From Lingula anatina (lineage: Eukaryota > Animalia > Brachiopoda): DNA of 64,000 nt. Each line of letters starts with the position of its first letter. Position 1 is the stretch's first letter. Location of the stretch: the NCBI GenBank assembly GCA_051362555.1, contig CM120641.1:11098001-11162000 (forward strand). The letters run 5' to 3'. The position numbers and the translations under genes were made by a program. The notes beneath the pieces are model-generated. The model saw only the letters and a list, made by a program, of their open reading frames with translations. It made no database searches and was not told where the DNA came from. Shown in pieces: positions 1 through 64,000 of this stretch.

Positions 1-152
1 TTTTCATAAAACCCTGTCACCCCGTCGTTATAACCTATGGTAGCAAACATGTGCCCGTTTTCCGGGTCTGAGTACATGGCACCCTGTCCGTAGTTAAAAA
101 TGGCGTAAGATTGGGTGCCGTTGGTGACCAGAACTAATTGATAGCTGTTATT
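1..152 (-). CDS. NIDO core exon (runs off window): NNSYQLVLVTNGTQSYAIFNYGQGAMYSDPENGHMFATIGYNDGVTGFYE…
   Basis: Acceptor ttttcatttccAG at 154-153, phase 0. Closely matches the NIDO core motif NTFQxVLxTDGxxSFAIFNY…AxxGFNxG. Confidence 0.92.
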
Positions 153-600
153 CTGGAAATGAAAATACAATATGGCACTATGAAATATGAGATCACTGTA
201 AAATGAGTTATGGCGCTTTTTGTGACCAAATGATTGAAGGCAAACCATGGATTTCCAGCATAAACTAACGTGTCCAATCTAAAAATACATGTATATCACA
301 GCATGCCGGGTGTATATTTCTTACTGTCTTGCATGAGTAGATCTACGTTTTAATGTGATTAGATGCCTTGTCTTAAGAACTTTCAAGGTCGGTCAAAACT
401 TTAAGATAAATATTAATGTACCAAGCTAAATTAGTTATATTCCATTTAAACAATTTAACTCATTAAAGAAAGACGATGTCTTATGTTATAGATCAAAAGT
501 TACTTTATTTTAGTAATTTAGTACATATTTATTATAAACTCAAGTAGACGTCGGTAAATATTGAAGAGTTAATAGTGCAGCTGGGCCTGAAGTTAGTCAC
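153..600 (-). other. Spliceosomal intron (448 bp, GT-AG, phase 0)
   Basis: GTGACT…ttttcatttccAG with a clear polypyrimidine tract. Confidence 0.88.
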
Positions 601-754
601 CTGGTTCTGGTACCAAGTCGCTGGATAAGGGACCACCTGGTACCATGTAGAGACAAACACAAACGTTGAGGTGAAGTTTTCACTAATGAAGGCACCAATC
701 TCATCGTCCGCTCGCTGGAACGTGCTGATTGCAGTGGTACCGGTGTCTTGTGCC
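601..754 (-). CDS. NIDO-region exon (154 bp): (R)AQDTGTTAISTFQRADDEIGAFISENFTSTFVFVSTWYQVVPYPATWYQNQ
   Basis: Acceptor tcatttacAG at 756-755, donor CAG|GTGACT at 601/600; phase 2 in, phase 0 out. RAxxxI…F…FVxTWxxV is the conserved NIDO helix/strand pattern. The frame differs from the track's 597..821 ORF. Confidence 0.9.
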
Positions 755-1154
755 CTGTAAATGACGTAAAACGTTCAGTCTTATAGAAAGTAATTATTGT
801 TTTACAGTTTCTGCCAAACAATTAAATATTATAAATAAAATAAACAAATAAACGGACAAGAAATAAGAATATAAAAACATGCTCAGGAATGTTGGAATGT
901 CTATATATATAGAACGCTCACACATACTTTCATAATCAAGAGTACAAAAACACGTAATGCGGATAGTTAAAAGTAATGAATGCAGGAATTAACAAATCAA
1001 AAATTTGAAAAAATATAATGAATAAATAAATAATTGAATAAATAATGAAAAAATAATAAAATCGTTTTTTATATAAATATAGTTCGTTAAATAAATATAA
1101 TTTGTGTGTCAAACTAATAAACATCACTATCCCAACTGTATCATGTAAACCAAC
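755..1154 (-). other. Spliceosomal intron (400 bp, GT-AG, phase 2)
   Basis: GTTGGT…tttacAG; very AT-rich centre (1000-1100); join gives codon AG|G (Arg). Confidence 0.82.
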
Positions 1155-1315
1155 CTGTAATAAGCGTGATAGTAAACACGTGAGGAGGAATTCTCTGAAG
1201 GGTCTTCTTGGTCCATGGAATATGGTGCAATTATGTCATCTCCAATAAGTGGAAATTGGAAAGGGACACGTCCAGTATAGGGATGGTTGAACGATACGTA
1301 ACCATCAGCAGAGAC
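1155..1315 (-). CDS. NIDO-region exon (161 bp): VSADGYVSFNHPYTGRVPFQFPLIGDDIIAPYSMDQEDPSENSSSRVYYHAYY(R)
   Basis: Acceptor ccttAG at 1317-1316, donor AG|GTTGGT at 1155/1154; phase 0 in, phase 2 out. Motifs YVSxxGxxSF, FP, IAPxxxD and VYY correspond to NIDO-family YVxxNGxISF…IAPFWAD…VYYR. Confidence 0.9.
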
Positions 1316-1590
1316 CTAAGGTTACAGTAAATTTAGAGGTTATTGTTGAAGGTATTTTGTACCGCTAAGTTTAAGACATCTTAATGGACAGTTTGTTTGG
1401 TGGATAATACGAGTGAACTTAAAATCTTTATTTCTCATAGCTTATGCAGTAGAATTCAAAGTAATCACAGTAAACTTATCACAAATTTTACGATAAAAAA
1501 AGCAGTGACGGTGTTAAGAGTATGACAACATAAATCGAAAATAAGAATCGTTTGACAAAGTGGGATTCCTTTGTCCCAGGATATACTCAC
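1316..1590 (-). other. Spliceosomal intron (275 bp, GT-AG, phase 0)
   Basis: GTGAGT…ccttAG; join gives SIY|VSADG, continuing the NIDO motif YVSxxG. Confidence 0.88.
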
Positions 1591-1658
1591 ATATATACTA
1601 TTAAGTAGACGCCCTTGAAATGGAAAAGGGGTATCGGAACCGATGCAGAGGCTGCCAC
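1591..1658 (-). CDS. NIDO-region exon (68 bp): (G)GSLCIGSDTPFPFQGRLLNSIY
   Basis: Acceptor tttgatacAG at 1660-1659, donor GTGAGT at 1590. Phase 1 in (matches the giant exon donor), phase 0 out. PFPFxGxxxxSIY is the typical N-terminal strand region of NIDO proteins (tectorin/SUSD2/nidogen PFPFFG…Y). Confidence 0.88.
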
Positions 1659-2871
1659 CTGTATCAAATTAAATGATGATATTTTACAGAATAATTTCAT
1701 AAAACCAAGGAAGTTGACATCTGCTTCCTTGATAAACGAGGACAAATCTAGATTGAAAGCAACAGCTATGGACGATGAAGGGAGATGGGGTGGGGTTACT
1801 CAGTAAGAATGTTATGAGTATTTTTGTTTTTGACTGTTCTTTCTCGGCATGTAAAAATATAAAAAACTATATACCTTCAGAAAAAGAGTGAATGTTTCCT
1901 GCCCCTGTCAAACTTTGGATCTGATTTTAAAACTTTGTTTTGACGTTAACACGATGATAATTTGACATTTAGAGCCTGCTTTTTAAAGGGGTTTAGATAA
2001 ACTCAATTTCTCACTGAAATGTAAAAATGAATAGCGACAGAAGCAGATACAACCTAAGCAGAAAACGGGTCATGATAAACAAAGGGTATGATAAGCCTTT
2101 ATTATCCTCCAGATACCTAAAATGAGGTTTTCCTGCATCTAATTATTCAATAATGCATTTATTTTTGTGCTGATTAAAAACTTAGTCGTCAATTTAACGC
2201 CTTTCTATTTTGAGGTGGGATAGCAATCGGTATGGCGCGTGACTTCATCCCTAATTAAGAATTTATCACGAATTTTGGCAGAGTTGACCACAAGTGTATG
2301 GGCTACAATCCCGTGCCGTCATTTTAGTTTAAATGTTTTTGTTATGGAGTTTGGATCCCTTAATTACAAATTTCCATTAAGCAAAGGCATTATTTTGCTT
2401 TATCAACGATAAAACCTGAACTAGAACTTTTTAAAAATCGCTGACAGGTTTTGGAGTATTAAATAGTGTCATTAAATCAACTTTAAGAGGTGTTCGTGGG
2501 TGCTCAGGTAAAGGAGAAATTTGAGAAACCGATTGTTCAGTTTTTACCCCAAAATTGCAATTATATCTTCACCGTATGATGATATATGTGTAAATGATAA
2601 TTTAGTCACTGAACAATGAGGATTTATCTATAACCCAAAAGAATGTATGTAAGGCAGTGAATAAGGAGCCATAAAAGCATATAAAACTGAAACCAGTAAG
2701 AACGGAATACCCATCACTAGCATTAGTCCTATTATCCCCTGCAATTCTCAGCACTCATGCCCGTTTTGCCAGCTTTGTATTTTGTATAAAAAACATATAT
2801 GTAAAAAAAAAACAATTTATAGAGAAAAGATAGGGTAAAAGGTAATTTGTAGACATTAAATGCTCAATAAA

Positions 2872-2974
<103 letters not shown>

Positions 2975-3067
2975 GGTGATTAAAGCTCCTATTAGATTAT
3001 AACAACAAGTCTATGTACACTTATAGTGATTTTGATCAATTTGATCAGCAACATATTAAAGACAAAG

Positions 3068-3128
3068 GCACACTTTATCACACAATGTGCAGCACACTTT
3101 ATCACACAATGTGCAGCACACTTTATCA
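3068..3128. repeat. 24-bp tandem repeat, 2.5 copies (gcacactttatcacacaatgtgca)
   Basis: Exact copies at 3068-3091 and 3092-3115, partial copy 3116-3128. Confidence 0.93.
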
Positions 3129-3161
3129 AAACATTTTGATTAGTTTGAACATGTAATTACA

Positions 3162-3274
3162 CCACACCAAACACAGAACATTATAATGATTTTGCTATGC
3201 GTTTATATAACGAAAAAAAAAAAACGCTATTGTAATGTTATTGTTATGTTAGAAAACGTTCTGTGTTTGCTGGG
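3162..3274. mobile_element. Short palindromic, MITE-like element (degenerate)
   Basis: Perfect 12-bp inverted repeat caaacacagaac (3168-3179) / gttctgtgtttg (3258-3269), with further inner pairs (aacattataat/attgtaatgtt, gcgttt/aaacgc). No clear target-site duplication. Confidence 0.45.
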
Positions 3275-3396
3275 AATGTGCGCTTTTTACTCCACTTCAC
3301 AAGTTTTCTTCCAACTGTTGTGAAAAATCCAAACATATCTTGTAAATTAGTCATGTGAAGCATAAGCTATCAATACAGTCAACCTCACTGCTCTAT

Positions 3397-3402
3397 TTTA
3401 TT
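3397..3402 (-). promoter_or_regulatory. Candidate intronic polyadenylation signal AATAAA
   Basis: Minus strand reads TGA(3409-3407)-aatt-AATAAA, right after the in-frame read-through stop. It could be chance in an AT-rich intron. Confidence 0.3.
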
Positions 3403-3432
3403 AATTTCAAGGACTGTTCCAATAACACGTAC

Positions 3433-6400
3433 CTGATCCAATAGGGATTCCAATAGACACAGGTGCTTCCAAAAAGTAATCCCCTGCTGTAATTCCAAAT
3501 GGAAACATATTAAAAAATTCAGAAGTTGCAACTTCAGTGGTTAAATTGGATAAAAATGCAACAGTTGTAGTCTCTTGTGCAGTCACACCAGAGGCTTGTG
3601 TTGTAACATCTGCAGCTGCTGTGGTGCTTGCATCAGTAACAGCAGCTGTCTGTGCCTGTGTGGTTACATCAGCAGCAGCAGTAGTCTGGGCTTGAGTTGT
3701 TGCTGCCTGTGAAGTTACATCACCTGCCACAGTTGTAGTCTCTTGTGCAGTCACTCCAGAGGCTTCTGTTGTAACATCTGCAGCTGATGTGGTGCTTGCA
3801 TCAGTAACAGCAGCTGTCTGTGCCTTTGTGGTCACATCGGCAGCAGTAGTAGTCTGGGCTTGAGTTGTTGCTGCCTGTGAAGTTACATCACCTGCGACAG
3901 TTGTAGTCTCTTGTGCAGTCACACCAGAGGCTTGTGTTGTAACATCTGCAGCTGCTGTGGTGATTGCATCAGTAACAGCAACTGACTGTGCCTGTGTGGT
4001 TACATCGGCAGCAGCAGTAGTATGGGCTTGAGATGTTGCTGCCTGTGAAGTTACATCACCTGCGACAGTTGTAGTCTCTTGTGCAGTCATACCAGAGGCT
4101 TGTGTTGTAACATCTGCAGCTGCTGTGGTGCTTGCATCAGTAACAGCAGCTGTCTGTGCCTGTGTGGTTACATCGGCCGCAGCAGTAGTCTGGGCTTGAG
4201 TTGTTGCTGCCTGTGAAGTTACATCACCTGCGACAGTTGAAGTCTCTTGTGCAGTCACACCAGAGGCTTGTGTTGTAACATCTGCAGCTGCTGTGGTGCT
4301 TGCATCAGTAACAGCAGCTGTCTGTGCCTGTGTGGTTACATCGGCAGCAGCAGTAGTCTGGGCTTGAGTTGTTGCTGCCTGTGAAGTTACATCACCTGCG
4401 ACAGTTGTAGTCTCTTGTGCAGTCACACCAGAGGCTTGTGTTGTAACATCTGCAGCTGCTGTGGTGATTACATCAGTAACAGCAGCTGTCTGTGCCTGTG
4501 TGGTTACATCGGCAGCAGCAGTAGTCTGGGCTTGAGTTGTTGCTGCCTGTGAAGTTACATCACCTGCGACAGTTGTAGTCTCTTGTGCAGTCACACCAGA
4601 GGCTTGTGTTGTAACATCTGCAGCTGCTGTGGAGCTAGTATCAGTAACAGCAGCTGTCTGTGCCTGTGTGGTTACATCGGCAGCAGCAGTAGTCTGGGCT
4701 TGAGTTGTTGCTGCCTGTAAAGTTACATCACCTGCGACAGTTGTAGTCTCTTGTGCAGTCACACCAGAGGCTTGTGTTGTAACATCTGCAGCTGCTGTGG
4801 TGCTTGCATCAGTAACAGCAGCTGTCTGTGCCTGTGTGGTTACATCGGCAGCAGCAGTTGTCTGGGCTTGAGTTGTTGCTGCCTGTGAAGTTACATCACC
4901 TGCGACAGTTGTAGTCTCTTGTGCAGTCACACCAGAGGCTTGTGTTGTAACATCTGCAGCTGCTGTGGTGCTTGCATCAGTAACAGCAGCTGTCTGTGCC
5001 TGTGTGGTTACATCAGCAGCAGCAGTAGTCTGGGCTTGAGTTGTTGCTGCCTCTGAAGTTACATCACCTACGACAGTTGTAGTCTCTTGTGCAGTCACAG
5101 CAGAGGCTTGTGTTGTAACATCTGCAGCTGCTGTGGAGCTAGCATCAGTAACAGCAGCTGTCTGTGCCTGTGTGGTTACATCGGCAGCAGCAGCAGTAGT
5201 CTGGGCTTGAGTTGTTGCTGCCTGTGAAGTTACATCACCTGCGACAGTTGTAGTCTCTTGTGCAGTCACACCAGAGGCTTGTGTTGTAACATCTGCAGCT
5301 GCTGTGGTGCTTGCATCAGTAACAGCAGCTGTCTGTGCCTGTGTGGTTACATCGGCAGCAGCAGTTGTCTGGGCTTGAGTTGTTGCTGCCTGTGAAGTTA
5401 CATCACCTGCGACAGTTGTAGTCTCTTGTGCAGTCACACCAGAGGCTTGTGTTGTAACATCTGCAGCTGCTGTGGTGATTACATCAGTAACAGCAGCTGT
5501 CTGTGCCTGTGTGGTTACATCGGCAGCAGCAGTAGTCTGGGCTTGAGTTGTTGCTGCCTGTGAAGTTACATCACCTGCGACAGTTGTAGTCTCTTGTGCA
5601 GTCACACGAGAGGCTTGTGTTGTAACATCTGCAGCTGCTGTGGTGCTTGCATCAGTAACAGCAGCTGTCTGTGCATGTGTGGTTACATCGGCAGCAGCAG
5701 TAGTCTGGGCTTGAGTTGTTGCTGCCTGTGAAGTTACATCACCTGCGACAGTTGTAGTCTCTTGTGCAGTCACACCAGAGGCTTGTGTTGTAAGATCTGC
5801 AGCTGCTGTGGTGCTTGCATCAGTAACAGCAGCTGTCTGTGCCTGTGTGGTTACATCAGCAGCAGCAGTAGTCTGGGCTTCATTTGTTGCTGCCTGTGAA
5901 GTTACATCACCTGCGACAGTTGTAGTCTCTTGTGCAGTCACACCAGAGGCTTGTGTTGTAACATCTGCAGCTGCTGTGGAGCTAGTATCAGTAACAGCAG
6001 CTGTCTGTGCCTGTGTGGTTACATCGGCAGCAGCAGTAGTCTGGGCTTGAGTTGTTGCTGCCTGTGAAGTTACATCACCTGCGACAGTTGTAGTCTCTTG
6101 TGCAGTCACAGCAGAGGCTTGTGTTGTAACATCTGCAGCTGCTGTGGGGCTAGCATCAGTAACAGCAGCTGTCTGTGCCTGTGTGGTTACATCGGCAGCA
6201 GCAGTTGTCTGGGCTTGAGTTGTTGCTGCCTGTGAAGTTACATCACCTGCGACAGTTGTAGTCTCTTGTGCAGTCACACCAGAGGCTTGTGTTGTAACAT
6301 CTGCAGCTGCTGTGGTGCTTGCATCAGTAACAGCAGCTGTCTGTGCATGTGTGGTTACATCGGCAGCAGCAGTAGTCTGGGCTTGAGTTGTTGCTGCCTG

Positions 6401-9400
6401 TGAAGTTACATCACCTGCGACAGTTGTAGTCTCTTGTGCAGTCACACCAGAGGCTTGTGTTGTAAGATCTGCAGCTGCTGTGGTGCTTGCATCAGTAACA
6501 GCAGCTGTCTGTGCCTGTGTGGTTACATCAGCAGCAGCAGTAGTCTGGGCTTCATTTGTTGCTGCCTGTGAAGTTACATCACCTGCGACAGTTGTAGTCT
6601 CTTGTGCAGTCACACCAGAGGCTTGTGTTGTAACATCTGCAGCTGCTGTGGAGCTAGTATCAGTAACAGCAGCTGTCTGTGCCTGTGTGGTTACATCGGC
6701 AGCAGCAGTAGTCTGGGCTTGAGTTGTTGTTGCCTGTGAAGTTACATCACCTGCGACAGTTGTAGTCTCTTGTGCAGTCACAGCAGAGGCTTGTGTTGTA
6801 ACATCTGCAGCTGCTGTGGGGCTAGCATCAGTAACAGCAGCTGTCTGTGCCTGTGTGGTTACATCGGCAGCAGCAGTTGTCTGGGCTTGAGTTGTTGCTG
6901 CCTGTGAAGTTACATCACCTGCGACAGTTGTAGTCTCTTGTGCAGTCACACCAGAGGCTTGTGTTGTAACATCTGCAGCTGCTGTGGTGCTTGCATCAGT
7001 AACAGCAGCTGTCTGTGCCTGTGTGGTTACATCGGCAGCAGCAGTAGTCTGGGCTTGAGTTGTTGCTGCCTGTGAAGTTACATCACCTGCGACAGTTGAA
7101 GTCTCTTGTGCAGTCACACCAGAGGCTTGTGTTGTAACATCTGCAGCTGCTGTGGTGCTTGCATCAGTAACAGCAGCTGTCTGTGCCTGTGTGGTTACAT
7201 CGGCAGCAGCAGTAGTCTGGGCTTGAGTTGTTGCTGCCTGTGAAGTTACATCACCTGTGACAGTTGTAGTCTCTTGTGCAGTCACACCAGAGGCTTGTGT
7301 TGTAACATCTGCAGCTGCTGTGGTGCTTGCATCAGTAACAGCAGCTGTCTGTGCCTGTGTGGTTACATCGGCAGCAGTAGACTGGGCTTGAGTTGTTGCT
7401 GCCTGTGAAGTTACATCACCTGCGACAGTTGAAGTCTCTTGTGCAGTCACACCAGAGGCTTGTGTTGTAACATCTGCAGCTGCTGTGGTGCTTGCATCAG
7501 TAACAGCAGCTGTCTGTGCCTGTGTGGTTACATCGGCAGCAGCAGTAGTCTGGGCTTGAGTTGTTGCTGCCTGTGAAGTTACATCACCTGCGACAGTTGT
7601 AGTCTCTTGTGAAGTCACACCAGAGGCTTGTGTTGTTACATCTGCAGCTGCTGTGGTGCTTGCATCAGTAACAGCAGCTGTCTGTGCCTGTGTGGTTACA
7701 TCGGCAGCAGCAGTAGTCTGGGCTTGAGTTGTTGCTGCCTGTGAAGTTACATCACCTGCGACAGTTGTAGTCTCTTGTGCAGTCACAGCAGAGGCTTGTG
7801 TTGTAACATCTGCAGCTGCTGTGGAGCTAGCATCAGTAACAGCAGCTGTCTGTGCCTGTGTGGTTACATCGGCAGCAGCAGTAGTCTGGGCTTGAGTTGT
7901 TGCTGCCTGTGAAGTTACATCACCTGCGACAGTTGTAGTCTCTTGTGCAGTCACACCAGAGGCTTGTGTTGTAACATCTGCAGCTGCTGTGGTGCTTGCA
8001 TCAGTAACAGCAGCTGTCTGTGCCTGTGTGGTTACATCGGCAGCAGCAGTTGTCTGGGCTTGAGTTGTTGCTGCCTGTGAAGTTACATCACCTGCGACAG
8101 TTGTAGTCTCTTGTGAAGTCACACCAGAGGCTTGTGTTGTTACATCTGCAGCTGCTGTGGTGCTTGCATCAGTAACAGCAGCTGTCTGTGCCTGTGTGGT
8201 TACATCGGCAGCAGCAGTAGTCTGGGCTTGAGTTGTTGCTGCCTGTGAAGTTACATCACCTGCGACAGTTGTAGTCTCTTGTGCAGTCACACGAGAGGCT
8301 TGTGTTGTAACATCTGCAGCTGCTGTGGTGCTTGCATCAGTAACAGCAGCTGTCTGTGCATGTGTGGTTACATCGGCAGCAGCAGTAGTCTGGGCTTGAG
8401 TTGTTGCTGCCTGTGAAGTTACATCACCTGCAACAGTTGTAGTCTCTTGTGCAGTCATACCAGAGGCTTGTGTTGTAACATCTGCAGCTGCTGTGGTGCT
8501 TGCATCAGTAACAGCAGCTGTCTGTGCCTGTGTGGTTACATCGGCCGCAGCAGTAGTCTGGGCTTGAGTTGTTGCTGCCTGTGAAGTTACATCACCTGCG
8601 ACAGTTGAAGTCTCTTGTGCAGTCACACCAGAGGCTTGTGTTGTAACATCTGCAGCTGCTGTGGTGCTTGCATCAGTAACAGCAGCTGTCTGTGCCTGTG
8701 TGGTTACATCGGCAGCAGCAGTAGTCTGGGCTTGAGTTGTTGCTGCCTGTGAAGTTACATCACCTGCGACAGTTGTAGTCTCTTGTGCAGTCACACCAGA
8801 GGCTTGTGTTGTAACATCTGCAGCTGCTGTGGTGATTGCATCAGTAACAGCAGCTGTCTGTGTCTGTGTGGTTACATCAGCAGCAGCAGTAGTCTGGGCT
8901 TGAGTTGTTGCTGCCTGTGAAGTTACATCACCTGCGACAGTTGTAGTCTCTTGTGCAGTCACACCAGAGGCTTGTGTTGTAACATCTGCAGCTGCTGTGG
9001 TGATTACATCAGTAACAGCAGCTGTCTGTGACTGTGTGGTTACATCGGCAGCAGCAGTAGTCTGGGCTTGAGTTGTTGCTGCCTGTGAAGTTACATCACC
9101 TGCGACAGTTGTAGTCTCTTGTGCAGTCACACCAGAGGCTTGTGTTGTAACATCTGCAGCTGCTGTGGTGCTTGCATCAGTAACAACAGCTGCCTTTGCC
9201 TGTGTGGTTACATCGGCTGCAGCAGTAGTCTGGGCTTGAGTTGTTGCTGCCTGTGAAGTTACATCACCTGCGACAGTTGTAGTCTCTTGTGCAGTCACAC
9301 CAGAGGCTTGTGTTGTAACATCTGCAGCTGCTGTGGTGCTTGCATCAGTAACAGCAGCTGTCTGTGCCTGTGTGGTTACATCGGCAGCAGCAGTAGTCTG

Positions 9401-12400
9401 GGCTTGAGTTGTTGCTGCCTGTGAAGTTACATCACCTGCGACAGTTGTAGTCTCTTGTGCAGTCACACGAGAGGCTTGTGTTGTAACATCTGCAGCTGCT
9501 GTGGTGCTTGCATCAGTAACAGCAGCTGTCTGTGCATGTGTGGTTACATCGGCAGCAGCAGTAGTCTGGGCTTGAGTTGTTGCTGCCTGTGAAGTTACAT
9601 CACCTGCGACAGTTGTAGTCTCTTGTGCAGTCACACCAGGGGCTTGTGTTGTAACAACTGCAGCTGCTGTGGTGCTTGCATCAGTAACAGCAGCTGTCTG
9701 TGCCTGTGTGGTTACATCGGCAGCAGCAGTAGTCTGGGCTTGAATTGTTGCTGCCTGTGAAGTTACATCACCTGCGACAGTTGTAGTCTCTTGTGCAGTC
9801 ACACCAGAGGCTTGTGTTGTAAGATCTGCAGCTGCTGTGGTGCTTGCATCAGTAACAGCAGCTGTCTGTGCCTGTGTGGTTACATCAGCAGCAGCAGTAG
9901 TCTGGGCTTCATTTGTTGCTGCCTGTGAAGTTACATCACCTGCGACAGTTGTAGTCTCTTGTGCAGTCACACCAGAGGCTTGTGTTGTAACATCTGCAGC
10001 TGCTGTGGAGCTAGCATCAGTAACAGCAGCTGTCTGTGCCTGTGTGGTTACATCGGCAGCAGCAGTTGTCTGGGCTTGAGTTGTTGCTGCCTGTGAAGTT
10101 ACATCACCTGCGACAGTTGTAGTCTCTTGTGCAGTCACACCAGAGGCTTGTGTTGTAACATCTGCAGCTGCTGTGGTGCTTGCATCAGTAACAGCAGCTG
10201 TCTGTGCCTGTGTGGTTACATCGGCAGCAGCAGTAGTCTGGGCTTGAGTTGTTGCTGCCTGTGAAGTTACATCACCTGCGACAGTTGTAGTCTCTTGTGC
10301 AGTCACACCAGAGGCTTGTGTTGTAACATCTGCAGCTGCTGTGGTGCTTGCATCAGTAACAACGGCTGTCTGTGCCTGTGTGGTTACATCGGCTGCAGCA
10401 GTAGTCTGGGCTTGAGTTGTTGCTGCCTGTGAAGTTACATCACCTGCGACAGTTGTAGTCTCTTGTGCAGTCACACCAGAGGCTTGTGTTGTAACATCTG
10501 CAGCTGCTGTTGTGCTTGCATCAGTAACAACGGCTGTCTGTGCCTGTGTGGTTACATCGGCTGCAGCATTAGTCTGAGCTTGAGTTGTTGCTGCCTGTGA
10601 AGTTACATCACCTGCGACAGTTGTAGTCTCTTGTGCAGTCACACCAGAGGCTTGTGTTGTAACATCTGCAGCTGCTGTGGTGCTTGCATCAGTAACAGCA
10701 GCTGTCTGTGCCTGTGTGGTTACATCGGCAGCAGTAGTCTGGGCTTGAGTTGTTGCTGCCTGTGAAGTTACATCACCTGCGACAGTTGTAGTCTCTTGTG
10801 CAGTTACACCAGAGGCTTGTGTTGTAACATCTGCAGCTGCTGTGGTGCTTGCATCAGTAACAGCAGCTGTCTGTGCCTGTGTGGTTACATCGGCAGCAGC
10901 AGTAGTCTGGGCTTGAGATGTTGGTGCCTGTGAAGTTACATCACCTGCGACAGTTGTAGTCTCTTGTGCAGTCACACCAGAGGCTTGTGTTGTAACATCT
11001 GCAGCTGCTGTGGTGCTTGCATCAGCAACAATGGCTGTCTGTGCCTGTGTGGTTACATCGGCTGCAACAGTAGTCTTGGCTTGAGTTGTTGCTGCCTGTG
11101 AAGTTACATCACCTGCGACAGTTGTAGTCTCTTGTGCAGTCACACCAGAGGCTTGTGTTGTAACATCTGCAGCTGCTGTGGTGCTTGCATCAGTAACAGC
11201 AGCTGTCTGTGCCTGTGTGGTTACATCGGCAGTAGCAGTAGTCTGGGCTTGAGTTGTTGCTGCCTGAGAAATTACATCACCTGCGACAGTTGAAGTCTCT
11301 TGTGCAGTCACACCAGAGGCTTGTGTTGTAACATCTGCAGCTGCTGTGGTGCTTGCATCAGTAACAGGAGCTGTCTGTGCCTGTGTGGTTACATCGGCAG
11401 CAGCAGTAGTCTGGGCTTGAGTTGTTGCTGCCTGTGAAGTTACATCACCTGCGACAGTTGTAGTTTCTTGTGCAGTTACACCAGAGGCTTGTGTTGTAAC
11501 ATCTGCAGCTGCTGTGGTGCTTGCATCAGTAACAGCAGCTGTCTGTGCCTGTGTGGTTACATCGGTAGCAGCAGTAGTCTGGGCTTGAGATGTTGGTGCC
11601 TGTGAAGTTACATCACCTGCGACAGTTGTAGTCTCTTGTGCAGTCACACCAGAGGCTTGTGTTGTAACATCTGCAGCTGCTGTGGTGCTTGCATCAGTAA
11701 CAACGGCTGTCTGTGCCTGTGTGGTTACATCGGCTGCAGCAGTAGTCTGGGCTTGAGTTGTTGCTGCCTGTGAAGTTACATCACCTGCGACAGTTGTAGT
11801 CTCTTGTGCAGTCACACCATAGGCTTGTGTTGTAACATCTGCAGCTGCTGTGGTGCTTGCATCAGTAACAGCAGCTGTCTGTGCCTGTGTGGTTACATCG
11901 GCAGCAGCAGTAGTCTGGGCTTGAGTTGTTGCTGCCTGTGAAGTTACATCACCTGCGACAGTTGTAGTCTCTTGTGCAGTCACACCAGAGGCTTGTGTTG
12001 TAACATCGGCAGCAGCAGTAGTCTGGGCTTGAGTTGTTGCTGCCTGTGAAGTTACATCACCTGCGACAGTTGTAGTCTCTTGTGCAGTCACACCAGAGGC
12101 TGGTGTTGTAACATCTGCAGCTGCTGTGGTGCTTGCATCAGTAACAGCAGCTGTCTGTGCCTGTGTGGTTACATCAGCAGCAGCAGTAGTCTGGGCTTCA
12201 TTTGTTGCTGCCTGTGAAGTAACATCACCTGCGACAGTTGTAGTCTCTTGTGCAGTCACACCAGAGGCTTGTGTTGTAACATCTGCAGCTGCTGTGGAGC
12301 TAGTATCAGTAACAGCAGCTGTCTGTGCCTGTGTGGTTACATCGGCAGCAGCAGTAGTCTGGGCTTGAGTTGTTGCTGCCTGTGAAGTTACATCACCTGC

Positions 12401-54400: not shown

Positions 54401-57400
54401 AGTTGTTGCTGCCTGTGAAGTTACATCACCTGCAGTCACACCAGAGGCTTGTGTTGTAACATCTGCAGCTGCTGTGGTGCTTGCATCAGTAACAGCAGCT
54501 GTCTGTGCCTGTGTGGTTACATCGGCAGCAGCAGTAGTCTGGGCTTCAGTTGTTGCTGCCTGTGAAGTTACATCACCTGCGACAGTTGTAGTCTCTTGTG
54601 CAGTCACACCAGAGGCTTGTGTTGTAACATCTGCAGCTGCTGTGGTGCTTGCATCAGTAACAACGGCTGTCTGTGCCTGTGTGGTAACATCGGCAGCAGC
54701 AGTAGGCTGGGCTTGAGTTGTTGCTGCCTGTGAAGTTACATCACCTGCGACAGTTGTAGTCTCTTGTGCAGTCACACCAGAGGCTTGTGTTGTAACATCT
54801 GCAGCTGCTGTGGTGCTTGCATCAGTAACAGCAGCTGTCTGTGCCTGTGTGGTTACATCGGCAGCAGCAGTAGTCTGGGCTTGAGTTGTTGCTGCCTGTG
54901 AAGTTACATCACCTGCGACAGTTGTAGTCTCTTGTGCAGTCACACCAGAGGCTTGTGTTGTAACATCGGCAGCAGCAGTAGTCTGGGCTTGAGTTGTTGC
55001 TGCCTGTGAAGTTACATCACCTGCGACAGTTGTAGTCTCTTGTGCAGTCACACCAGAGGCTGGTGTTGTAACATCTGCAGCTGCTGTGGTGCTTGCATCA
55101 GTAACAGCAGCTGTCTGTGCCTGTGTGGTTACATCGGCAGCAGCAGTAGTCTGGGCGTCATTTGTTGCTGCCTGTGAAGTTACATCACCTGCGACAGTTG
55201 AAGTCTCTTGTGCAGTCACACCAGAGGCTTGTGTTGTAACATCTGCAGCTGCTGTGGTGCTTGCATCAGTAACAGCAGCTGTCTGTGCCTGTGTGGTTAC
55301 ATCGGCAGCAGCAGTAGTCTGGGCTTGAGTTGTTGCTGCCTGTGAAGTTACATCACCTGCGACAGTTGAAGTCTCTTGTGCAGTCACACCAGAGGCTTGT
55401 GTTGTAACATCTGCAGCTGCTGTGGTGCTTGCATCAGTAACAGCAGCTGTCTGTGCCTGTGTGGTTACATCAGCAGCAGCAGTAGTCTGGGCTTCAGTTG
55501 TTGCTGCCTGTGAAGTTACATCACCTGCGACAGTTGTAGTCTCTTGTGCAGTCACACCAGAGGCTTGTGTTGTAACATCTGCAGCTGCTGTGGTGCTTGC
55601 ATCAGTAACAGCAGCTGTCTGTGCCTGTGTGGTTACATCGGCAGCAGCAGTAGTCTGGGCTTGAGTTGTTGCTGCCTGTAAAGTTACATCACCTGCGACA
55701 GTTGAAGTCTCTTGTGCAGTCACACCAGAGGCTTGTGTTGTAACATCTGCAGCTGCTGTGGTGCTTGCATCAGTAACAGCAGCTGTCTGTGCCTGTGTGG
55801 TTACATCGGCAGCAGCAGTAGTCTGGGCTTGAGTTGTTGCTGCCTGTGAAGTTACATCACCAGCGACAGTTGTAGTCTCTTGTGCAATCACACCAGAGGC
55901 TTGTGTTGTAACATCTGCAGCTGCTGTGGTGCTTGCATCAGTAACAGCAGATGTCTGTGCCTGTGTGGTTACATCGGCAGCAGCAGTAGTCTGGGCTTGA
56001 GTTGCTGCTGCCTGTGAAGTTACATCACCTGCGACAGTTGTAGTCTCTTGTGCAGTCACACCAGAGGCTTGTGTTGTAACATCTGCAGCTGCTGTGGTGC
56101 TTGCATCAGTAACAGCAGCTGTCTGTGCCTGTGTGGTTACATCGGCAGCAGCAGTAGTCTGGGCTTCAGTTGTTGCTGCCTGTGAAGTTACATCACCTGC
56201 GACAGTTGTAGTCTCTTGTGCAGTCACACCAGAGGCTTGTGTTGTAACATCTGCAACTGCTGTGGTGCTTGCATCAGTAACAGCAGCTGTCTGTGCCTGT
56301 GTGGTTACATCAGCAGCAGCAGTAGTCTGGGCTTGAGTTGTTGCTGCCTGTGAAGTTACATCACCTGCGACAGTTGTAGTCTCTTGTGCAGTCACACCAG
56401 AGGCTTGTGTTGTAACATCTGCAGCTGCTGTGGTGCTTGCATCAGTAACAGCAGCTGTCTGTGCCTGTGTGGTTACATCGGCAGCAACAGTAGTCTGGGC
56501 TTGAGTTGTTGCTGCCTGTGAAGTTACATCACCTGCGACAGTTGTAGTCTCTTGTGCAGTCACACCAGAGGCTTGTGTTGTAACATCTGCAGCTGCTGTG
56601 GTGCTTGCATCAGTAACAGCAGCTGTCTGTGCCTGTGTGGTTACATTGGCAGCAGCAGTAGTCTGGGCTTGAGTTGTTGCTGCCTGTGAAGTTACATCAC
56701 CTGCGACAGTTGTAGTCTCTTGTGCAGTCACACCAGAGGCTTGTGTTGTAACATCTGCAGCTGCTGTGGTGCTTGCATCAGTAACAGCAGCTGTCTGTGC
56801 CTGTGTGGTAACATCGGCAGCAACAGTAGTCTGGGCTTGAGTTGTTGCTGCCTGTGAAGTTACATCACCTGCGACAGTTGTAGTCTCTTGTGCAGTCACA
56901 CCAGAGGCTTGTGTTGTAACATCTGCAGCTGCTGTGGTGCTTGCATCAGTAACAGCAGCTGTCTGTGCCTGTGTGGTTACATCAGCAGCAGCAGTAGTCT
57001 GGGCTTGAGTTGTTGCTGCCTGTGAAGTAACATCACCTGCGACAGTTGTAGTCTCTTGTGCAGTCACACCAGAGGCTTGTGTTGTAACATCTGCAGCTGC
57101 TGTGGTGCTTGCATCAGTAACAGCAGCTGTCTGTGCCTGTGTGGTTACATCGGCAGCAACAGTAGTCTGGGCTTGAGTTGTTGCTGCCTGTGAAGTTACA
57201 TCACCTGCGACAGTTGTAGTCTCTTGTGCAGTCACACCAGAGGCTTGTGTTGTAACATCTGCAGCTGCTGTGGTGCTTGCATCAGTAACAGCAGCTGTCT
57301 GTGCCTGTGTGGTTACATCGGCAGCAGCAGTAGTCTGGGCTTGAGTTGTTGCTGCCTGTGAAGTTACATCACCTGCGACAGTTGTAGTCTCTTGTGCAGT

Positions 57401-60400
57401 CACACCAGAGGCTTGTGTTGTAACATCTGCAGCTGCTGTGGTGCTTGCATCAGTAACAGCAGCTGTCTGTGCCTGTGTTGTTACATTAGCAGCAGCAGTA
57501 GTCTGCGCTTCAGTTGTTGCTGCCTGTGAAGTTACATCACCTGCGACAGTTGTAGTCTCTTGTGCAGTCACACCAGAGGCTTGTGTTGTAACATCTGCAG
57601 CTGCTGTGGTGCTTGCATCAGTAACAGCAGCTGTCTGTGCCTGTGTGGTTACATCGGCAGCAGCAGTAGTCTGGGCTTGAGTTGTTGCTGCCTGTGAAGT
57701 TACATCACCTGCAACGGTTGAAGTCTCTTGTGCAGTCACACCAGAGACTTGTGTTGTAACATCTGCAGCTGCTGTGGTGCTTGCATCAGTAACAGCAGCT
57801 GTCTGTGCCTGTGTGGTTACATCAGCAGCAGCAGTAGTCTGGGCTTGAGTTGTTGCTGGCTGTGAAGTTACATCACCTGCGACAGTTGTAGTCTCTTGTG
57901 CAGTCACACCAGAGGCTTGTGTTGTAACATCTGCAGCTGCTGTGGTGCTTGCATCAGTAACAGCAGCTGTCTGTGCCTGTGTGGTTACATCGGCAGCAGC
58001 ATTAGTCTGGGCTTGAGTTGTTGCTGCCTGTGAAGTTACATCACCTGCGACAGTTGTAGTCTCTTGTGCAGTCACACCAGAGGCTTGTGTTGTAACATCT
58101 GCAGCTGCTGTGGTGCTTGCATCAGTAACAGCAGCTGTCTGTGCCTGTGTGGTTACATCGGCAGCAGCATTAGTCTGGGCTTGAGTTGTTGCTGCCTGTG
58201 AAGTTACATCACCTGCGACAGTTGTAGTCTCTTGTGCAGTCACACCAGAGGCTTGTGTTGTAACATCTGCAGCTGCTGTGGTGCTTGCATCAGTAACAGC
58301 AGCTGTCTGTGCCTGTGTGGTTACATCGGCAGCAGCAGTAGTCTGGGCTTGAGTTGTTGCTGCCTGTGAAGTTACATCACCTGCGACAGTTGTAGTCTCT
58401 TGTACAGTCACACCAGAGGCTTGTGTTGTAACATCTGCAGCTGCTGTGGTGCTTGCATCAGTAACAACGGCTGTCTGTGCCTGTGTGGTAACATAGGCAG
58501 CAGCAGTAGTCTGGGCTTGAGTTGTTGCTGCCTGTGAAGTTACATCACCTGCGACAGTTGTAGTCTCTTGTGCAGTCACACCAGAGGCTTGTGTTGTAAC
58601 ATCTGCAGCTGCTGTGGTGCTTGCATCAGTAACAGCAGCTGTCTGTGCCTGTGTGGTTACATCGGCAGCAGCAGTAGTCTGGGCTTGAGTTGTTGCTGCC
58701 TGTGAAGTAACATCACCTGCGACAGTTGTAGTCTCTTGTGCAGTCACACCAGAGGCTTGTGTTGTAACATCGGCAGCAGCAGTAGTCTGGGCTTGAGTTG
58801 TTGCTGCCTGTGAAGTTACATCACCTGCGACAGTTGTAGTCTCTTGTGCAGTCACACCAGAGGCTGGTGTTGTAACATCTGCAGCTGCTGTGGTGCTTGC
58901 ATCAGTAACAGCAGCTGTCTGTGCCTGTGTGGTTACATCGGCAGCAGCAGTAGTCTGGGCGTCATTTGTTGCTGCCTGTGAAGTTACATCACCTGCGACA
59001 GTTGAAGTCTCTTGTGCAGTCACACCAGAGGCTTGTGTTGTAACATCTACAGCTGCTGTGGTGCTTGCATCAGTAACTGCAGCTGTCTGTGCCTGTGTGG
59101 TTACATCGGCAGCAGCAGTAGTCTGGGCTTGAGTTGTTGCTGCCTGTGAAGTTACATCACCTGCGACAGTTGAAGTCTCTTGTGCAGTCACACCAGAGGC
59201 TTGTGTTGTAACATCTGCAGCTGCTGTGGTGCTTGCATCAGTAACAGCAGCTGTCTGTGCCTGTGTGGTTACATCAGCAGCAGCAGTAGTCTGGGCTTCA
59301 GTTGTTGCTGCCTGTGAAGTTACATCACCTGCGACAGTTGTAGTCTCTTGTGCAGTCACACCAGAGGCTTGTGTTGTAACATCTGCAGCTGCTGTGGTGC
59401 TTGCATCAGTAACAGCAGCTGTCTGTGCCTGTGTGGTTACATCGGCAGCAGCAGTAGTCTGGGCTTGAGTTGTTGCTGCCTGTAAAGTTACATCACCTGC
59501 GACAGTTGAAGTCTCTTGTGCAGTCACACCAGAGGCTTGTGTTGTAACATCTGCAGCTGCTGTGGTGCTTGCATCAGTAACAGCAGCTGTCTGTGCCTGT
59601 GTGGTTACATCGGCAGCAGCAGTAGTCTGGGCTTCAGTTGTTGCTGCCTGTGAAGTTACATCACCTGCGACAGTTGTAGTCTCTTGTGCAGTCACACCAG
59701 AGGCTTGTGTTGTAACATCTGCAACTGCTGTGGTGCTTGCATCAGTAACAGCAGCTGTCTGTGCCTGTGTGGTTACATCAACAGCAGCAGTAGTCTGGGC
59801 TTCAGTTGTTGCTGCCTGTGAAGTTACATCACCTGCGACAGTTGTAGTCTCTTGTGCAGTCACACCAGAGGCTTGTGTTGTAACATCTGCAGCTGCTGTG
59901 GTGCTTGCATCAGTAACAGCAGCTGTCTGTGCCTGTGTGGTTACATCGGCAGCAGCAGTAGTCTGGGCTTGAGTTGTTGCTGCCTGTGAAGTTACATCAC
60001 CTGCGACAGTTGTAGTCTCTTGTGCAGTCACACCAGAGGCTTGTGTTGTAACATCTGCAGCTGCTGTGGTGCTTGCATCAGTAACAGCAGCTGTCTGTGC
60101 CTGTGTGGTTACATCGGCAGCAACAGTAGTCTGGGCTTGAGTTGTTGCTGCCTGTGAAGTTACATCACCTGCGACAGTTGTAGTCTCTTGTGCAGTCACA
60201 CCAGAGGCTTGTGTTGTAACATCTGCAGCTGCTGTGGTGCTTGCATCAGTAACAGCAGCTGTCTGTGCCTGTGTGGTTACATCGGCAGCAGCAGTAGTCT
60301 GGGCTTGAGTTGTTGCTGCCTGTGAAGTAACATCACCTGCGACAGTTGTAGTCTCTTGTGCAGTCACACCAGAGGCTTGTGTTGTAACATCTGCAGCTGC

Positions 60401-63400
60401 TGTGGTGCTTGCATCAGTAACAGCAGCTGTCTGTGCCTGTGTTGTTACATTAGCAGCAGCAGTAGTCTGGGCTTCAGTTGTTGCTGCCTGTGAAGTTACA
60501 TCACCTGCGACAGTTGTAGTCTCTTGTGCAGTCACACCAGAGGCTTGTGTTGTAACATCTGCAGCTGCTGTGGTGCTTGCATCAGTAACAGCAGCTGTCT
60601 GTGCCTGTGTGGTTACATCGGCAGCAGCAGTAGTCTGGGCTTGAGTTGTTGCTGCCTGTGAAGTTACATCACCTGCGACAGTTGTAGTCTCTTGTGCAGT
60701 CACACCAGAGACTTGTGTTGTAACATCTGCAGCTGCTGTGGTGCTTGCATCAGTAACAGCAGCTGTCTGTGCCTGTGTGGTTACATCAGCAGCAGCAGTA
60801 GTCTGGGCTTGAGTTGTTGCTGGCTGTGAAGTTACATCACCTGCGACAGTTGTAGTCTCTTGTGCAGTCACACCAGAGGCTTGTGTTGTAACATCTGCAG
60901 CTGCTGTGGTGCTTGCATCAGTAACAGCAGCTGTCTGTGCCTGTGTGGTTACATCGGCAGCAACAGTAGTCTGGGTTTGAGTTGTTGCTGCCTGTGAAGT
61001 TACATCACCTGCGACAGTTGTAGTCTCTTGTGCAGTCACACCAGAGGCTTGTGTTGTAACATCTGCAGCTGCTGTGGTGCTTGCATCAGTAACAGCAGCT
61101 GTCTGTGCCTGTGTGGTTACAACAGCAGCAGCAGTAGTCTGGGCTCGAGTTGTTGCTGCCTGTGAAGTTACATCACCTGCGACAGTTGTAGTCTCTTGTG
61201 CAGTCACACCAGAGGCTTGTGTTGTAACATCTGCAGCTGCTGTGGTGCTTGCATCAGTAACAGCAACTGGCTGTGCCTGTGTGATTACATCGGCAGCAGC
61301 AGTAGTCTGGGCTTGAGTTGTTGCTACCTGTGAAGTTACATCACCTGCGACAGTTGTAGTCTCTTGTGCAGTCACACCAGAGACTTGTGTTGTAACATCT
61401 GCAGCTGCTGTGGTGCTTGCATCAGTAACAGCAGCTGTCTGTGCCTGTGTGGTTACATCGGCAGCAACAGTAATCTGGGCTTGAGTTGTTGCTGCCTGTG
61501 AAATTACATCACCTGCGACAGTTGTAGTCTCTTGTGCAGTCACACCAGAGGCTTGTGTTGTAACATCTGCAGCTGCTGTGGTGCTTGCATCAGTAACAGC
61601 AGCTGTCTGTGCCTGTGTGGTTACATCGGCAGCAACAGTAGTCTGGGCTTGAGTTGTTGCTGCCTGTGAAGTTACATCACCTGCGACAGTTGTAGTCTCT
61701 TGTGCAGTTACACCAGAGGCTTGTGTTGTAACATCTGCAGCTGCTTTGGTGCTTGCATCAGTAACAGTAGCTGTCTGTGCCTGTGTGGTTACAACGGCAG
61801 CAGCAGTAGTCTGGGCTTGAGTTGTTGCTGCCTGTGAAGTTACATCACCTGCGACAGTTGTAGTCTCTTGTGCAGTCACACCAGAGGCTTGTGTTGTAAC
61901 ATCTGCAGCTGCTGTGGTGCTTGCATCAGTAACAGCAGCTGGCTGTGCCTGTGTGGTTACATCGGCAGCAGCAGTAGTCTGGGCTTGAGTTGTTGCTACC
62001 TGTGAAGTTACATCACCTGCGACAGTTGTAGTCTCTTGTGCAGTCACACCAGAGGCTTGTGTTGTAACATCTGCAGCTGCTGTGGTGCTTGCATCAGTAA
62101 CAGCAGCTGTCTGTGCCTGTGTGGTTACATCGGCAGCAGCAGTAGTCTGGGCTTGAGTTGTTGCTGCCTGTGAAGTTACATCACCTGCGACAGTTGTAGT
62201 CTCTTGTGCAGTCACACCAGAGGCTTGTGTTGTAACATCTGCAGCTGCTGTGGTGCTTGCATCAGTAACAGCAGCTGTCTGTGCCTGTGTGGTTACATCG
62301 GCAGCAGCAGTAGTCTGGGCTTGAGTTGTTGGTGCCTGTGAAGTTACATCACCTGCGACAGTTGTAGTCTCTTGTGCAGTCACACCAGAGGCTGGTGTTG
62401 TAACATCTGCAGCTGCTGTGGTGCTTGCATCAGTAACAGCAGCTGTCTGTGCCTGTGTGGTTACATCGGCAGCAGCAGTAGTCTGGGCGTCATTTGTTGC
62501 TGCCTGTGAAGTTACATCACCTGCGACAGTTGAAGTCTCTTGTGCAGTCACACCAGAGGCTTGTGTTGTAACATCTACAGCTGCTGTGGTGCTTGCATCA
62601 GTAACTGCAGCTGTCTGTGCCTGTGTGGTTACATCGGCAGCAGCAGTAGTCTGGGCTTGAGTTGTTGCTGCCTGTGAAGTTACATCACCTGCGACAGTTG
62701 AAGTCTCTTGTGCAGTCACACCAGAGGCTTGTGTTGTAACATCTGCAGCTGCTGTGGTGCTTGCATCAGTAACAGCAGCTGTCTGTGCCTGTGTGGTTAC
62801 ATCGGCAGCAGCAGTAGTCTGGGCTTGAGTTGCTGCTGCCTGTAAAGTTACATCACCTGCGACAGTTGAAGTCTCTTGTGCAGTCACACCAGAGGCTTGT
62901 GTTGTAACATCTGCAGCTGCTGTGGTGCTTGCATCAGTAACAGCAGCTGTCTGTGCCTGTGTGGTTACATCGGCAGCAGCAGTAGTCTGGGCTTGAGTTG
63001 TTGCTGCCTGTGAAGTTACATCACCTGCGACAGTTGTAGTCTCTTGTGCAGTCACACCAGAGGCTTGTGTTGTAACATCGGCAGCAGCAGTAGTCTGGGC
63101 TTGAGTTGTTGCTGCCTGTGAAGTTACATCACCTGCGACAGTTGTAGTCTCTTGTGCAGTCACACCAGAGGCTGGTGTTGTAACATCTGCAGCTGCTGTG
63201 GTGCTTGCATCAGTAACAGCAGCTGTTTGTGCCTGTGTGGTTACATCGGCAGCAGCAGTAGTCTGGGCTTGAGTTGTTGCTGCCTGTGAAGTTACATCAC
63301 CTGCGACAGTTGAAGTCTCTTGTGCAGTCACACCAGAGGCTTGTGTTGTAACATCTGCAGCTGCTGTGGAGCTTGCATCAGTAACAGCAGCTGTCTGTGC

Positions 63401-64000
63401 CTGTGTGGTTATATCGGCAGCAGCAGTAGTCTGGGCTTGAGTTGTTGCTGCCTGAGAAATTACATCACCTGTGACAGTTGAAGTCTCTTGTGCAGTCACA
63501 CCAGAGGCTTGTGTTGTAACATCTGCAGCTGCTGTGGTGCTTGCATCAGTAACAGGAGCTGTCTGTGCCTGTGTGGTTACATCGGCAGCAGCAGTAGTCT
63601 GGGCTTGAGTTGTTGCTGCCTGTGAAGTTACATCACCTGCGACAGTTGTAGTTTCTTGTGCAGTTACACCAGAGGCTTGTGTTGTAACATCTGCAGCTGC
63701 TGTGGTGCTTGCATCAGTAACAGCAGCTGTCTGTGCCTGTGTGGTTACATCGGCAGCAGCAGTAGTCTGGGCTTCAGTTGTTGCTGCCTGTGAAGTTACA
63801 TCACCTGCGACAGTTGTAGTCTCTTGTGCAGTCACACCAGAGGCTTGTGTTGTAACATCTGCAGCTGCTGTGGTGCTTGCATCAGTAACAACGGCTGTCT
63901 GTGCCTGTGTGGTAACATCGGCAGCAGCAGTAGTCTGGGCTTGAGTTGTTGCTGCCTGTGAAGTTACATCACCTGTGACAGTTGTAGTCTCTTGTGCAGT
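3433..64000 (-). CDS. Giant coding exon (5' end outside window): mucin-like Thr/Ala-rich tandem-repeat domain (>=20,189 codons) plus linker and start of the NIDO region of a MUC4-like mucin
   Basis: One reading frame is open from the window edge (64000) to 3410; the track's start at 63835 is just an internal GTG (Val). Consensus unit QETTTVAGDVTSQAATTQAQTTAAADVTTQAQTAAVTDASTTAAADVTTQASGVTA. Unique tail FLSNLTTEVATSEFFNMFPFGITAGDYFLEAPVSIGIPIGSG ends at a strong donor CAG|GTACGT (3433/3432, phase 1). FPFG-x3-GD-x2-L matches the segment preceding NIDO in nidogen (LFPFG..GD..L) and MUC4 (LFPYG..GD). Confidence 0.88.
3557..64000 (-). repeat. Coding tandem array of 168-bp units (~368 units including ~23 shortened 108-bp units)
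   Basis: Periodicity is directly visible (e.g. gaagttacatcacctgcgacagttgtagtctcttgtgcagtcacaccagaggc recurs every 168 bp). Units usually differ by 0-4 substitutions. Unit count estimated from array length corrected for the deletions seen. Confidence 0.97.

Follow-up and report, generated by a model that had tools for sequence, protein, structure and literature searches.

A transcribed giant repeat exon, nearly devoid of proline, predicted to splice to a NIDO domain in the brachiopod Lingula anatina

We analyzed a 64,000-nucleotide stretch of the Lingula anatina genome (assembly GCA_051362555.1, contig CM120641.1, positions 11,098,001 to 11,162,000 of the forward strand), hereafter the window, in which a single open reading frame (ORF) on the minus strand spans positions 3407..64000. 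This ORF comprises 20,197 codons, is open at its 5' end, where it meets the right edge of the window (64000), and closes with a stop at 3409-3407; no start codon lies inside the window. The other five frames across the tandem array that makes up most of the ORF are interrupted by 323 to 1,435 stops. Together with four short exons to its left, the ORF forms a candidate gene encoding a long repeat domain followed by a NIDO domain, with the features listed here (X17 is an RNA run described below).

3433..64000, minus strand: giant coding exon, 60,568 nt or longer with its 5' end open; its last base is 3433, where a phase-1 GT donor follows
3557..64000, minus strand: tandem array within the giant exon, with RNA in run X17
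3433..3556, minus strand: unique end of the giant exon, a short linker with an N-glycosylation sequon and then the first NIDO motif, FPFG (3505-3494)
3397..3409, minus strand: in-frame stop of the unspliced read-through (3409-3407) with AATAAA directly after it (3402-3397)
1659..3432, minus strand: intron 1, 1,774 nt, GT-AG
1591..1658, minus strand: NIDO exon 2, 68 nt, from the N-terminal side of the domain and ahead of the Pfam profile, assigned by its frame and its alignment to NIDO homologs
1155..1315, minus strand: NIDO exon 3, 161 nt, PF06119 positions 5-51, two X17 reads
601..754, minus strand: NIDO exon 4, 154 nt, PF06119 positions 56-97
1..152, minus strand: NIDO exon 5, PF06119 positions 100-153, leaving the window at its left edge with the domain unfinished, two X17 reads

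Joining 64000-3433, 1658-1591, 1315-1155, 754-601 and 152-1 gives 20,367 codons with no stop, and all four of the predicted junctions (3433>1658, 1591>1315, 1155>754 and 601>152) are bounded by GT..AG. A crude match to the consensus, ties included, places the donors 1, 4, 5 and 2 among 193 GT sites and the acceptors 20, 21, 10 and 4 among 150 AG sites; the donor at 3433 scores 8/9. GC content is 0.44-0.51 in the exons versus 0.24-0.32 in the introns. The initial annotation had proposed that the giant ORF is not a stand-alone protein but the repeat exon of a spliced NIDO-domain gene, joined through four junctions of matching phase, and the frame, the GT-AG chain and the NIDO matches all agree with this proposal.

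Exons 3, 4 and 5 match the Pfam NIDO family PF06119 in order, covering positions 5-51, 56-97 and 100-153 of its 186 with E values of 2.4e-3, 1.7e-3 and 2.9e-7, as had been expected of a Pfam search of the spliced product. Exon 5 is the only one to pass the Pfam gathering score singly (31.1 bits, cut-off 25), and the other three of the six pieces scanned (repeat, linker and exon 2) have no Pfam match. The joined tail of 219 amino acids aligns over residues 18-218 to NIDO proteins with E values near 1e-16 (blastp, set of 55 proteins). These alignments begin at the FPFG motif inside the giant exon and continue across intron 1; since NIDO homology thus starts within the giant exon and spans the intron, the link between the array exon and the NIDO exons does not depend on how a repeat-filled intron was assembled. 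Five N-glycosylation sequons occur in the tail. NIDO is reported from matrix and cell-surface proteins, with a function described as not clearly assigned (10.1101/2020.07.27.223107).

The array contains about 368 units of 56 amino acids, encoded by a 168-bp repeat, the commonest of which is AQETTTVAGDVTSQAATTQAQTTAAADVTTQAQTAAVTDASTTAAADVTTQASGVT. Each unit is built of three internal sub-repeats of 17-20 amino acids, every one beginning DVT(S/T)QA, for a total of 1,077 sub-repeats. Among 367 unit-to-unit intervals, 339 measure 56 amino acids, 23 measure 36, three measure 55, one measures 57 and one measures 105, the last being two units fused through a 7-amino-acid loss. All 28 length variants keep the frame; as they follow the sub-repeats inside the unit and runs of triplets, they do not count as separate evidence for selection. 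At the DNA level the units fall into 135 distinct sequences, 77 of which occur once, with a mean pairwise difference of 2.9% and no frameshift. Nested higher-order duplications recur at lags of 1,788, 6,648, 10,740, 15,600 and 17,388 nt and form a record of array growth. The giant exon encodes at least 20,189 amino acids (1.92 MDa, 5.31 kDa per unit), of which 7,156 (35.4%) are Ser or Thr, 1,845 are Asp or Glu, 30 are Lys or Arg, 89 (0.44%) are Pro and none is Cys. These values reproduce the size figures of the initial annotation (about 1.9 MDa, about 5.3 kDa per unit and some 7,000 Ser/Thr). Its description of the domain as proline-free fits the consensus unit, which has no Pro, and fails for the exon as a whole, which is better called proline-poor. 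Its warning that trypsin would miss the repeat is justified, as the sparse Lys and Arg leave just two tryptic pieces of 7-40 amino acids.

Substitutions among the units indicate what is tolerated in the array. Relative to the consensus, 97 of 352 possible amino-acid changes and 30 of 142 possible synonymous changes are seen, and none of the 10 possible stop-making changes is seen, versus 5.05 expected by mutation class (P ~5e-4). The array substitutions are skewed to C>T (26 of 49 possible) and G>A (23 of 38 possible). The C>T change is present at 26 of 42 C sites where it makes no stop and at 0 of 7 Gln-codon sites where a stop would result (Fisher p 0.003), and within the CpA context alone the comparison is 10 of 19 versus 0 of 7 (p 0.023). 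Transversions did occur at all seven of these Gln-codon C sites. Relative to synonymous changes, those that alter an amino acid show no depletion (p 0.17), as expected of a compositional domain. On our reading of these sequence comparisons, selection would keep the frame of the array open and care little about single residues.

The run index named no RNA run as carrying the locus; nine RNA runs were available by species label, of which six were mapped (not X13, X14 and X20), each read to 6-26% and X17 to 6%. The initial annotation had looked to minus-strand transcript coverage over the array as a check, and this coverage is present in X17, where depth on the last repeat unit is 113 with the first mate on the plus strand and 0 on the minus; a first mate on the plus strand corresponds to minus-strand RNA in most stranded libraries. 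In the same run 80 reads span the unit-to-unit joint of head-to-tail units, exons 3 and 5 carry two reads each in the same orientation as the array reads (coverage of about two fragments), and unique intron sequence has no coverage. X18 has low array depth in both orientations. Eleven of the 12 variant rows that the RNA shows on the unit agree with variants of window units, and none of the 12 makes a stop. Two of these variants are confined within the window to 38.9-62.0 kb, which suggests that far-upstream units are transcribed, if the array of that animal is arranged alike. Variant frequencies differ between the window and X17.

These results bear on the possibility that the array is a non-coding satellite, situated either inside an intron or upstream of a NIDO gene and open merely through recent amplification of a stop-free unit. 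A candidate acceptor at 3486 (rank 13 of 150) and the neutral appearance of the amino-acid changes would fit such an arrangement. Against it, no stop-making change is seen among units that show 127 other variant types, and the array RNA is strand-specific and leaves the unique intron uncovered. The acceptor at 3486 was rejected, as its use would cut off the conserved FPFG first NIDO motif. We regard a satellite as a highly improbable account of the locus.

An independent DNA sample, X2 (2018, study P2), represents a different haplotype; the DNA comparison rests on it, with the small-share runs X8-X10 left out. One X2 contig covers 1-2047, introns included, at depth 96, and differs from the window by two substitutions and otherwise by intronic indels. 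A second covers 3099-3586 and thereby enters the array by 30 letters, one short of the bridging rule, with 2047-3099 unbridged. Two exon variants are common to X17 RNA and X2 DNA, at window positions 74 (Tyr>His) and 1250 (synonymous), and the three X2 indels in unique DNA (902, 1494 and 3213) are all intronic. On the repeat unit, summed X2 contig depth is 759,256 versus 96 on unique DNA, a figure that according to the tool is not a copy number; division by 31, the ceiling for k-mer overlap, still leaves about 250 copies. The array could nonetheless be real and its length inflated by assembly error: stretches as long as 20 units reappear unchanged at lags of 17,388 and 6,648 nt, about 4 kb are 99.8-100% identical at the 17,388-nt lag, and no independent record spans the array. 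Against inflation stand the many distinct and singleton units, the duplications nested at many sizes, the mean difference of 2.9% and the lack of any frameshift, together with the X2 depth, which by the division above still corresponds to about 250 copies. Inflation of the length is judged very unlikely.

Taken together, the locus is probably a transcribed gene with a repeat exon of at least 60.5 kb that is predicted to splice to four NIDO exons, and its product would be a huge, likely O-glycosylated, acidic Thr/Ala extracellular stalk ahead of a NIDO domain. A signal peptide would lie upstream of the array. As a chain of the secretory pathway with 35% Ser and Thr, the repeat would be open to mucin-type O-glycosylation. 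With many of its 7,156 Ser/Thr residues carrying O-GalNAc glycans, the chain would stiffen into a bottlebrush, for the visible part up to about 5-7 micrometers long at 0.25-0.36 nm per residue. Mucin-type O-glycosylation is reported to render the proline-, threonine- and serine-rich (PTS) domains of mucins extended and stiff (PMC4948705). Further domains outside the window would let the NIDO end fasten the stalk to a cell surface or to matrix. Unequal exchange would lengthen the array in frame-keeping steps, and selection would act on the open frame and bulk composition, not on each residue; stop-making changes would be purged, since a premature stop would leave the product without its NIDO end. 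The likely role is that of a thick glycocalyx, mucus or apical-matrix spacer. As one of the six RNA runs is strong, expression may be restricted to a tissue or stage. We infer the glycosylation, the bottlebrush shape and the full-length product of 20,000 amino acids, which would likely be among the largest sugar-coated, mucus-type proteins known.

Several results weigh against this interpretation. The junction reads proposed as a check by the initial annotation (3433>1658, 1591>1315, 1155>754 and 601>152) did not appear: the six partly read RNA runs yielded no splice-junction row, for which at least three reads were required and to which the unique exons brought about two fragments. Exon 2, exon 4 and the linker at 3433-3556 likewise have no RNA reads in the six runs. 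Array depth in X19 is 2, in the orientation opposite to X17, and X12, X15 and X16 contain no repeat reads. When the stop test is confined to variants seen at least twice, it is not significant (15 of 42 versus 0 of 7, p 0.084), and the window had been flagged for its open frame. The composition also departs from the usual PTS domain, in which Ser and Thr typically reach at least 40% and Pro often exceeds 5% (PMC4948705), compared with 35.4% and 0.44% here. Human mucin repeats are reported to span about 25-52% Ser and Thr (PMC13345508), so that the Ser/Thr level of the repeat is within the human range and its Pro level is the outlier. Structure prediction adds a final pair of adverse results. 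An AlphaFold2 single-sequence model of four units is all-beta with a 56-amino-acid period (pLDDT, short for predicted local distance difference test, 70; predicted template modeling score, pTM, 0.66), and a Pro-containing mucin-like repeat from a fish protein (P0009, described below), used as a control, is predicted to be unfolded (pLDDT 41, pTM 0.25).

Another alternative is a real gene whose main product is shorter than 20,000 amino acids or lacks NIDO. A phase-1 donor-like site in each unit could splice in frame to 1658, or an unspliced read-through could end at the stop with its AATAAA. The sequence CAG|GTGATG scores 7/9 in three of the four units scored, the stop at 3409-3407 and the AATAAA at 3402 lie downstream of the donor, none of the reads in the six runs links the array to the NIDO exons, and the ratio of RNA depth between array and exon has a point estimate of 150-170, below 368. 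The 95% range of this ratio, 42-1,415, is compatible with at least 368 units per transcript. The donor at 3433 scores higher (8/9) than the internal unit donors, whose use would skip the first NIDO motif. Stops appear to be purged and RNA variants are found that occur only far upstream in the window. AATAAA occurs three times in the AT-rich intron 1, and no RNA reads fall near the read-through stop. A shorter or NIDO-less main product seems improbable to us.

The structural alternative concerns the shape of the same product. Each 56-amino-acid unit could form three coils, of 17-20 residues each, of a parallel beta-solenoid, giving a stiff rod with Thr and Asp ladders and a NIDO cap instead of a disordered bottlebrush; the visible array would make about 1,077 coils, which, if each adds 0.48 nm, amount to a rod some 0.5 micrometers long. 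The bottlebrush reading of the initial annotation had left such a fold unconsidered. Besides the model and the control, the absence of Pro from the consensus unit is consistent with a solenoid, as is the common 20-amino-acid deletion, which removes one sub-repeat, and the 1-amino-acid indels fall in predicted turns. The four-unit model aligns to solved beta-helices, with Z 18.8 for EtpA (root-mean-square deviation 2.6, 222 residues aligned), 18.6 for HMW1 and 17.9 for a bacterial antifreeze protein (3p4g), and changes are slightly rarer in predicted strands, with differences that are not significant (Pro 3/25 versus 5/17, p 0.23; others 45/180 versus 44/130, p 0.10). On the other side, AlphaFold2 has been reported to predict solenoids with confidence for 32 of 78 random repeats, as well as for human mucin 22 in permuted form (PMC11795689), a known bias; the predicted solenoid was not accepted as evidence of the fold. 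The five AlphaFold2 models disagree in confidence (pLDDT 70, 64, 57, 55 and 42), Foldseek finds no match at E <=0.001, and the structural alignments only restate the shape of the model. Pro-making changes are not rarer than others of the same base classes (8/42 versus 11/77, p 0.60), and Pro occupies a predicted strand position in 28 units. The fish control is a single case of other composition and periodicity, and dense O-glycosylation before or during folding would oppose a solenoid. We consider the rod unlikely. Should the model nevertheless be right, which is a slim prospect, the product would be one unbroken beta-solenoid of more than 1,000 coils (at least 0.5 micrometers), a rod capped by NIDO and not a floppy brush, encoded in a single coding exon perhaps larger than any known.

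For the glycosylated stalk, the closest known systems are found among mucins and NIDO proteins. The initial annotation had called the gene MUC4-like. What stands of this label is the layout, one giant tandem-repeat exon upstream of NIDO both in MUC4 and here; human MUC4 carries 48-bp repeats in exon 2 (PMC2360313) and NIDO in mid-protein (10.1101/2020.07.27.223107). As a diagnosis the label is unsupported: a repeat followed by NIDO is not diagnostic of MUC4, because Ser/Thr-rich NIDO proteins without AMOP exist. A Ser/Thr-rich stretch occurs in three of 44 retrieved NIDO proteins, and these three have neither AMOP nor VWD. The array is also longer than any MUC4 repeat reported from 296 human assemblies (at least 60.4 kb versus a longest allele of 27,843 bp; PMC13345508), with a unit of 168 bp instead of 48 bp and almost no Pro. 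An earlier survey is reported to have placed Muc4-like proteins no deeper than Xenopus (PMC4948705), and the mucin4-like name has been applied to NIDO-AMOP-VWD proteins in papers on sea anemones and corals (PMC9080433, PMC4890752). The window ends inside NIDO on one side and inside the array on the other, so the regions in which AMOP, VWD, EGF, transmembrane and signal-peptide sequences would be sought are beyond it. If the gene is a stalk with NIDO as proposed, a full MUC4-type tail of AMOP, VWD, EGF and transmembrane segments is less likely than multi-NIDO or other tails taken together.

Thr-rich NIDO proteins of fish and frog without AMOP appear, on sequence comparison, to fit as well as MUC4. 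In the Hoplias malabaricus "mucin-22-like" protein XP_066520069.1 (P0009) and in Rana XP_040182910.1 (P0010), a Thr/Ser-rich repeat closely precedes NIDO, as here; they score 72 and 64 bits with the window NIDO, among the best, and Pfam finds no AMOP or VWD in either. They differ in having 5-15 NIDO copies and about 31% identity, by which evidence they are not orthologs, and the P0009 repeat has about 700 amino acids with 7.6% Pro, versus at least 20,000 nearly without Pro here. In size the nearest case is human MUC12, the longest allele of which has 23,080 amino acids and has been called the largest human coding exon (PMC13345508). It shares with this gene a giant exon bearing a variable number of tandem repeats (VNTR) and a similar length, and it is described as a SEA-type tethered mucin without NIDO (PMC9080433). 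As the exon length here is a lower bound (at least 20,189 amino acids), no size record is claimed, and titin is larger at 3.7 MDa (PMC3166861). The array has features of a mucin VNTR exon in keeping its frame, in being transcribed and in the differing variant frequencies. Alpha-tectorin-like proteins, Mesh and sea-star adhesion G protein-coupled receptors (GPCRs) of NIDO-HYR-GPS-seven-transmembrane (7TM) architecture (P0016, P0053 and P0044) share NIDO at 25-36% identity and illustrate possible tails after it, none of them with a long Thr-rich repeat before it. Mucin function is reported to arise repeatedly through gain of exonic repeats (PMC9417175). The product would work like a tethered or matrix mucin.

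By sequence identity the window NIDO is divergent, at 36% at most to its relatives. The highest scores against the joined tail are those of a ray tectorin-like protein (72 bits), the Hoplias protein (72 bits) and a sea-star adhesion GPCR (64 bits); AMOP-bearing proteins reach 52, 48 and 35 bits, with two more below threshold, and the retrieved set contained no protein named MUC4. In a quick tree of 66 rows the window NIDO sits on a long branch and is placed with no group; a careful maximum-likelihood search did not complete. A HMMER scan with exon 5 returned 14 matches, and Pfam on 13 of these (P0014 being too long) assigned NIDO to nine, no NIDO to four and AMOP to none; the top two matches are bacterial Ig-repeat proteins and were treated as chance. 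A profile search gave 32 proteins, five with AMOP and three with GPS and 7TM. Word-index searches over proteins of up to 2,000 amino acids found none at E <=0.001, either with exon 5 (six candidates) or with repeat and linker (7,991 candidates). Metagenome scans gave no exact match to the repeat pattern and confirmed none of 210 pattern matches in another scan, sequence searches of the PDB gave no NIDO entry, and in the ESM Atlas exon 3 scored 0.85 or less and the repeat had no usable match. Literature searches, which were not aimed at the species and did not cover subscription papers, returned no description of this gene or of a proline-poor giant repeat joined to NIDO. No close relative turned up in the protein collections covered; the word-index result is weak evidence of this, as that search reached proteins of up to 2,000 amino acids.

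The retrieved relatives also illustrate the range of NIDO proteins. NIDO heads adhesion GPCRs in echinoderms, with NIDO, HYR, GPS and 7TM in Asterias proteins (set of P0044, P0047 and P0054); Hydractinia P0037 joins six NIDO domains to a tyrosine kinase, and in cyprinid proteins a trypsin domain accompanies several NIDO domains. NIDO architectures are thus more varied than one would expect from the five human proteins.

Several further features were observed around the array. The unspliced frame of the giant exon ends 24-26 nt beyond the donor with AATAAA within 5 nt, which could give a secreted, NIDO-less isoform. Within intron 1, a high-copy dispersed repeat at about 2100-2700 is probably a transposon fragment; its summed contig depth in X2 is 8,000-29,000 versus 96 on unique DNA, RNA reads from other copies are present in all six runs, and Rfam gives no match over window positions 1-4000, this repeat included. 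The intron also contains a (TA)30(TG)19 microsatellite at 2873-2971 and a minisatellite of 24 bp in 2.5 copies at 3068-3128. On the plus strand, a stop-free stretch of 167 amino acids at 59469-59972 was taken as chance and probably reflects loss of the single plus-frame stop in adjacent units.

The gene stands out by the extreme size of its exon and the unusual scarcity of proline in it. At 60.5 kb or more, this expressed coding exon is over twice as long as the longest human MUC4 repeat allele and comparable in size to the longest MUC12 allele. Annotation probably masks genes of this kind, and trypsin-based proteomics would not see them; if the proline-poor product is a rod, it might belong to a broader class of giant Thr/Ala/Asp/Val repeat proteins overlooked by annotation. 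The near absence of proline makes it testable whether such proline-poor "mucin" repeats form glycosylated brushes or fold into solenoids. The array itself would serve as its own mutation-accumulation experiment, in which stops are purged while amino acids drift, and may thereby reveal what selection retains in a giant repeat exon.

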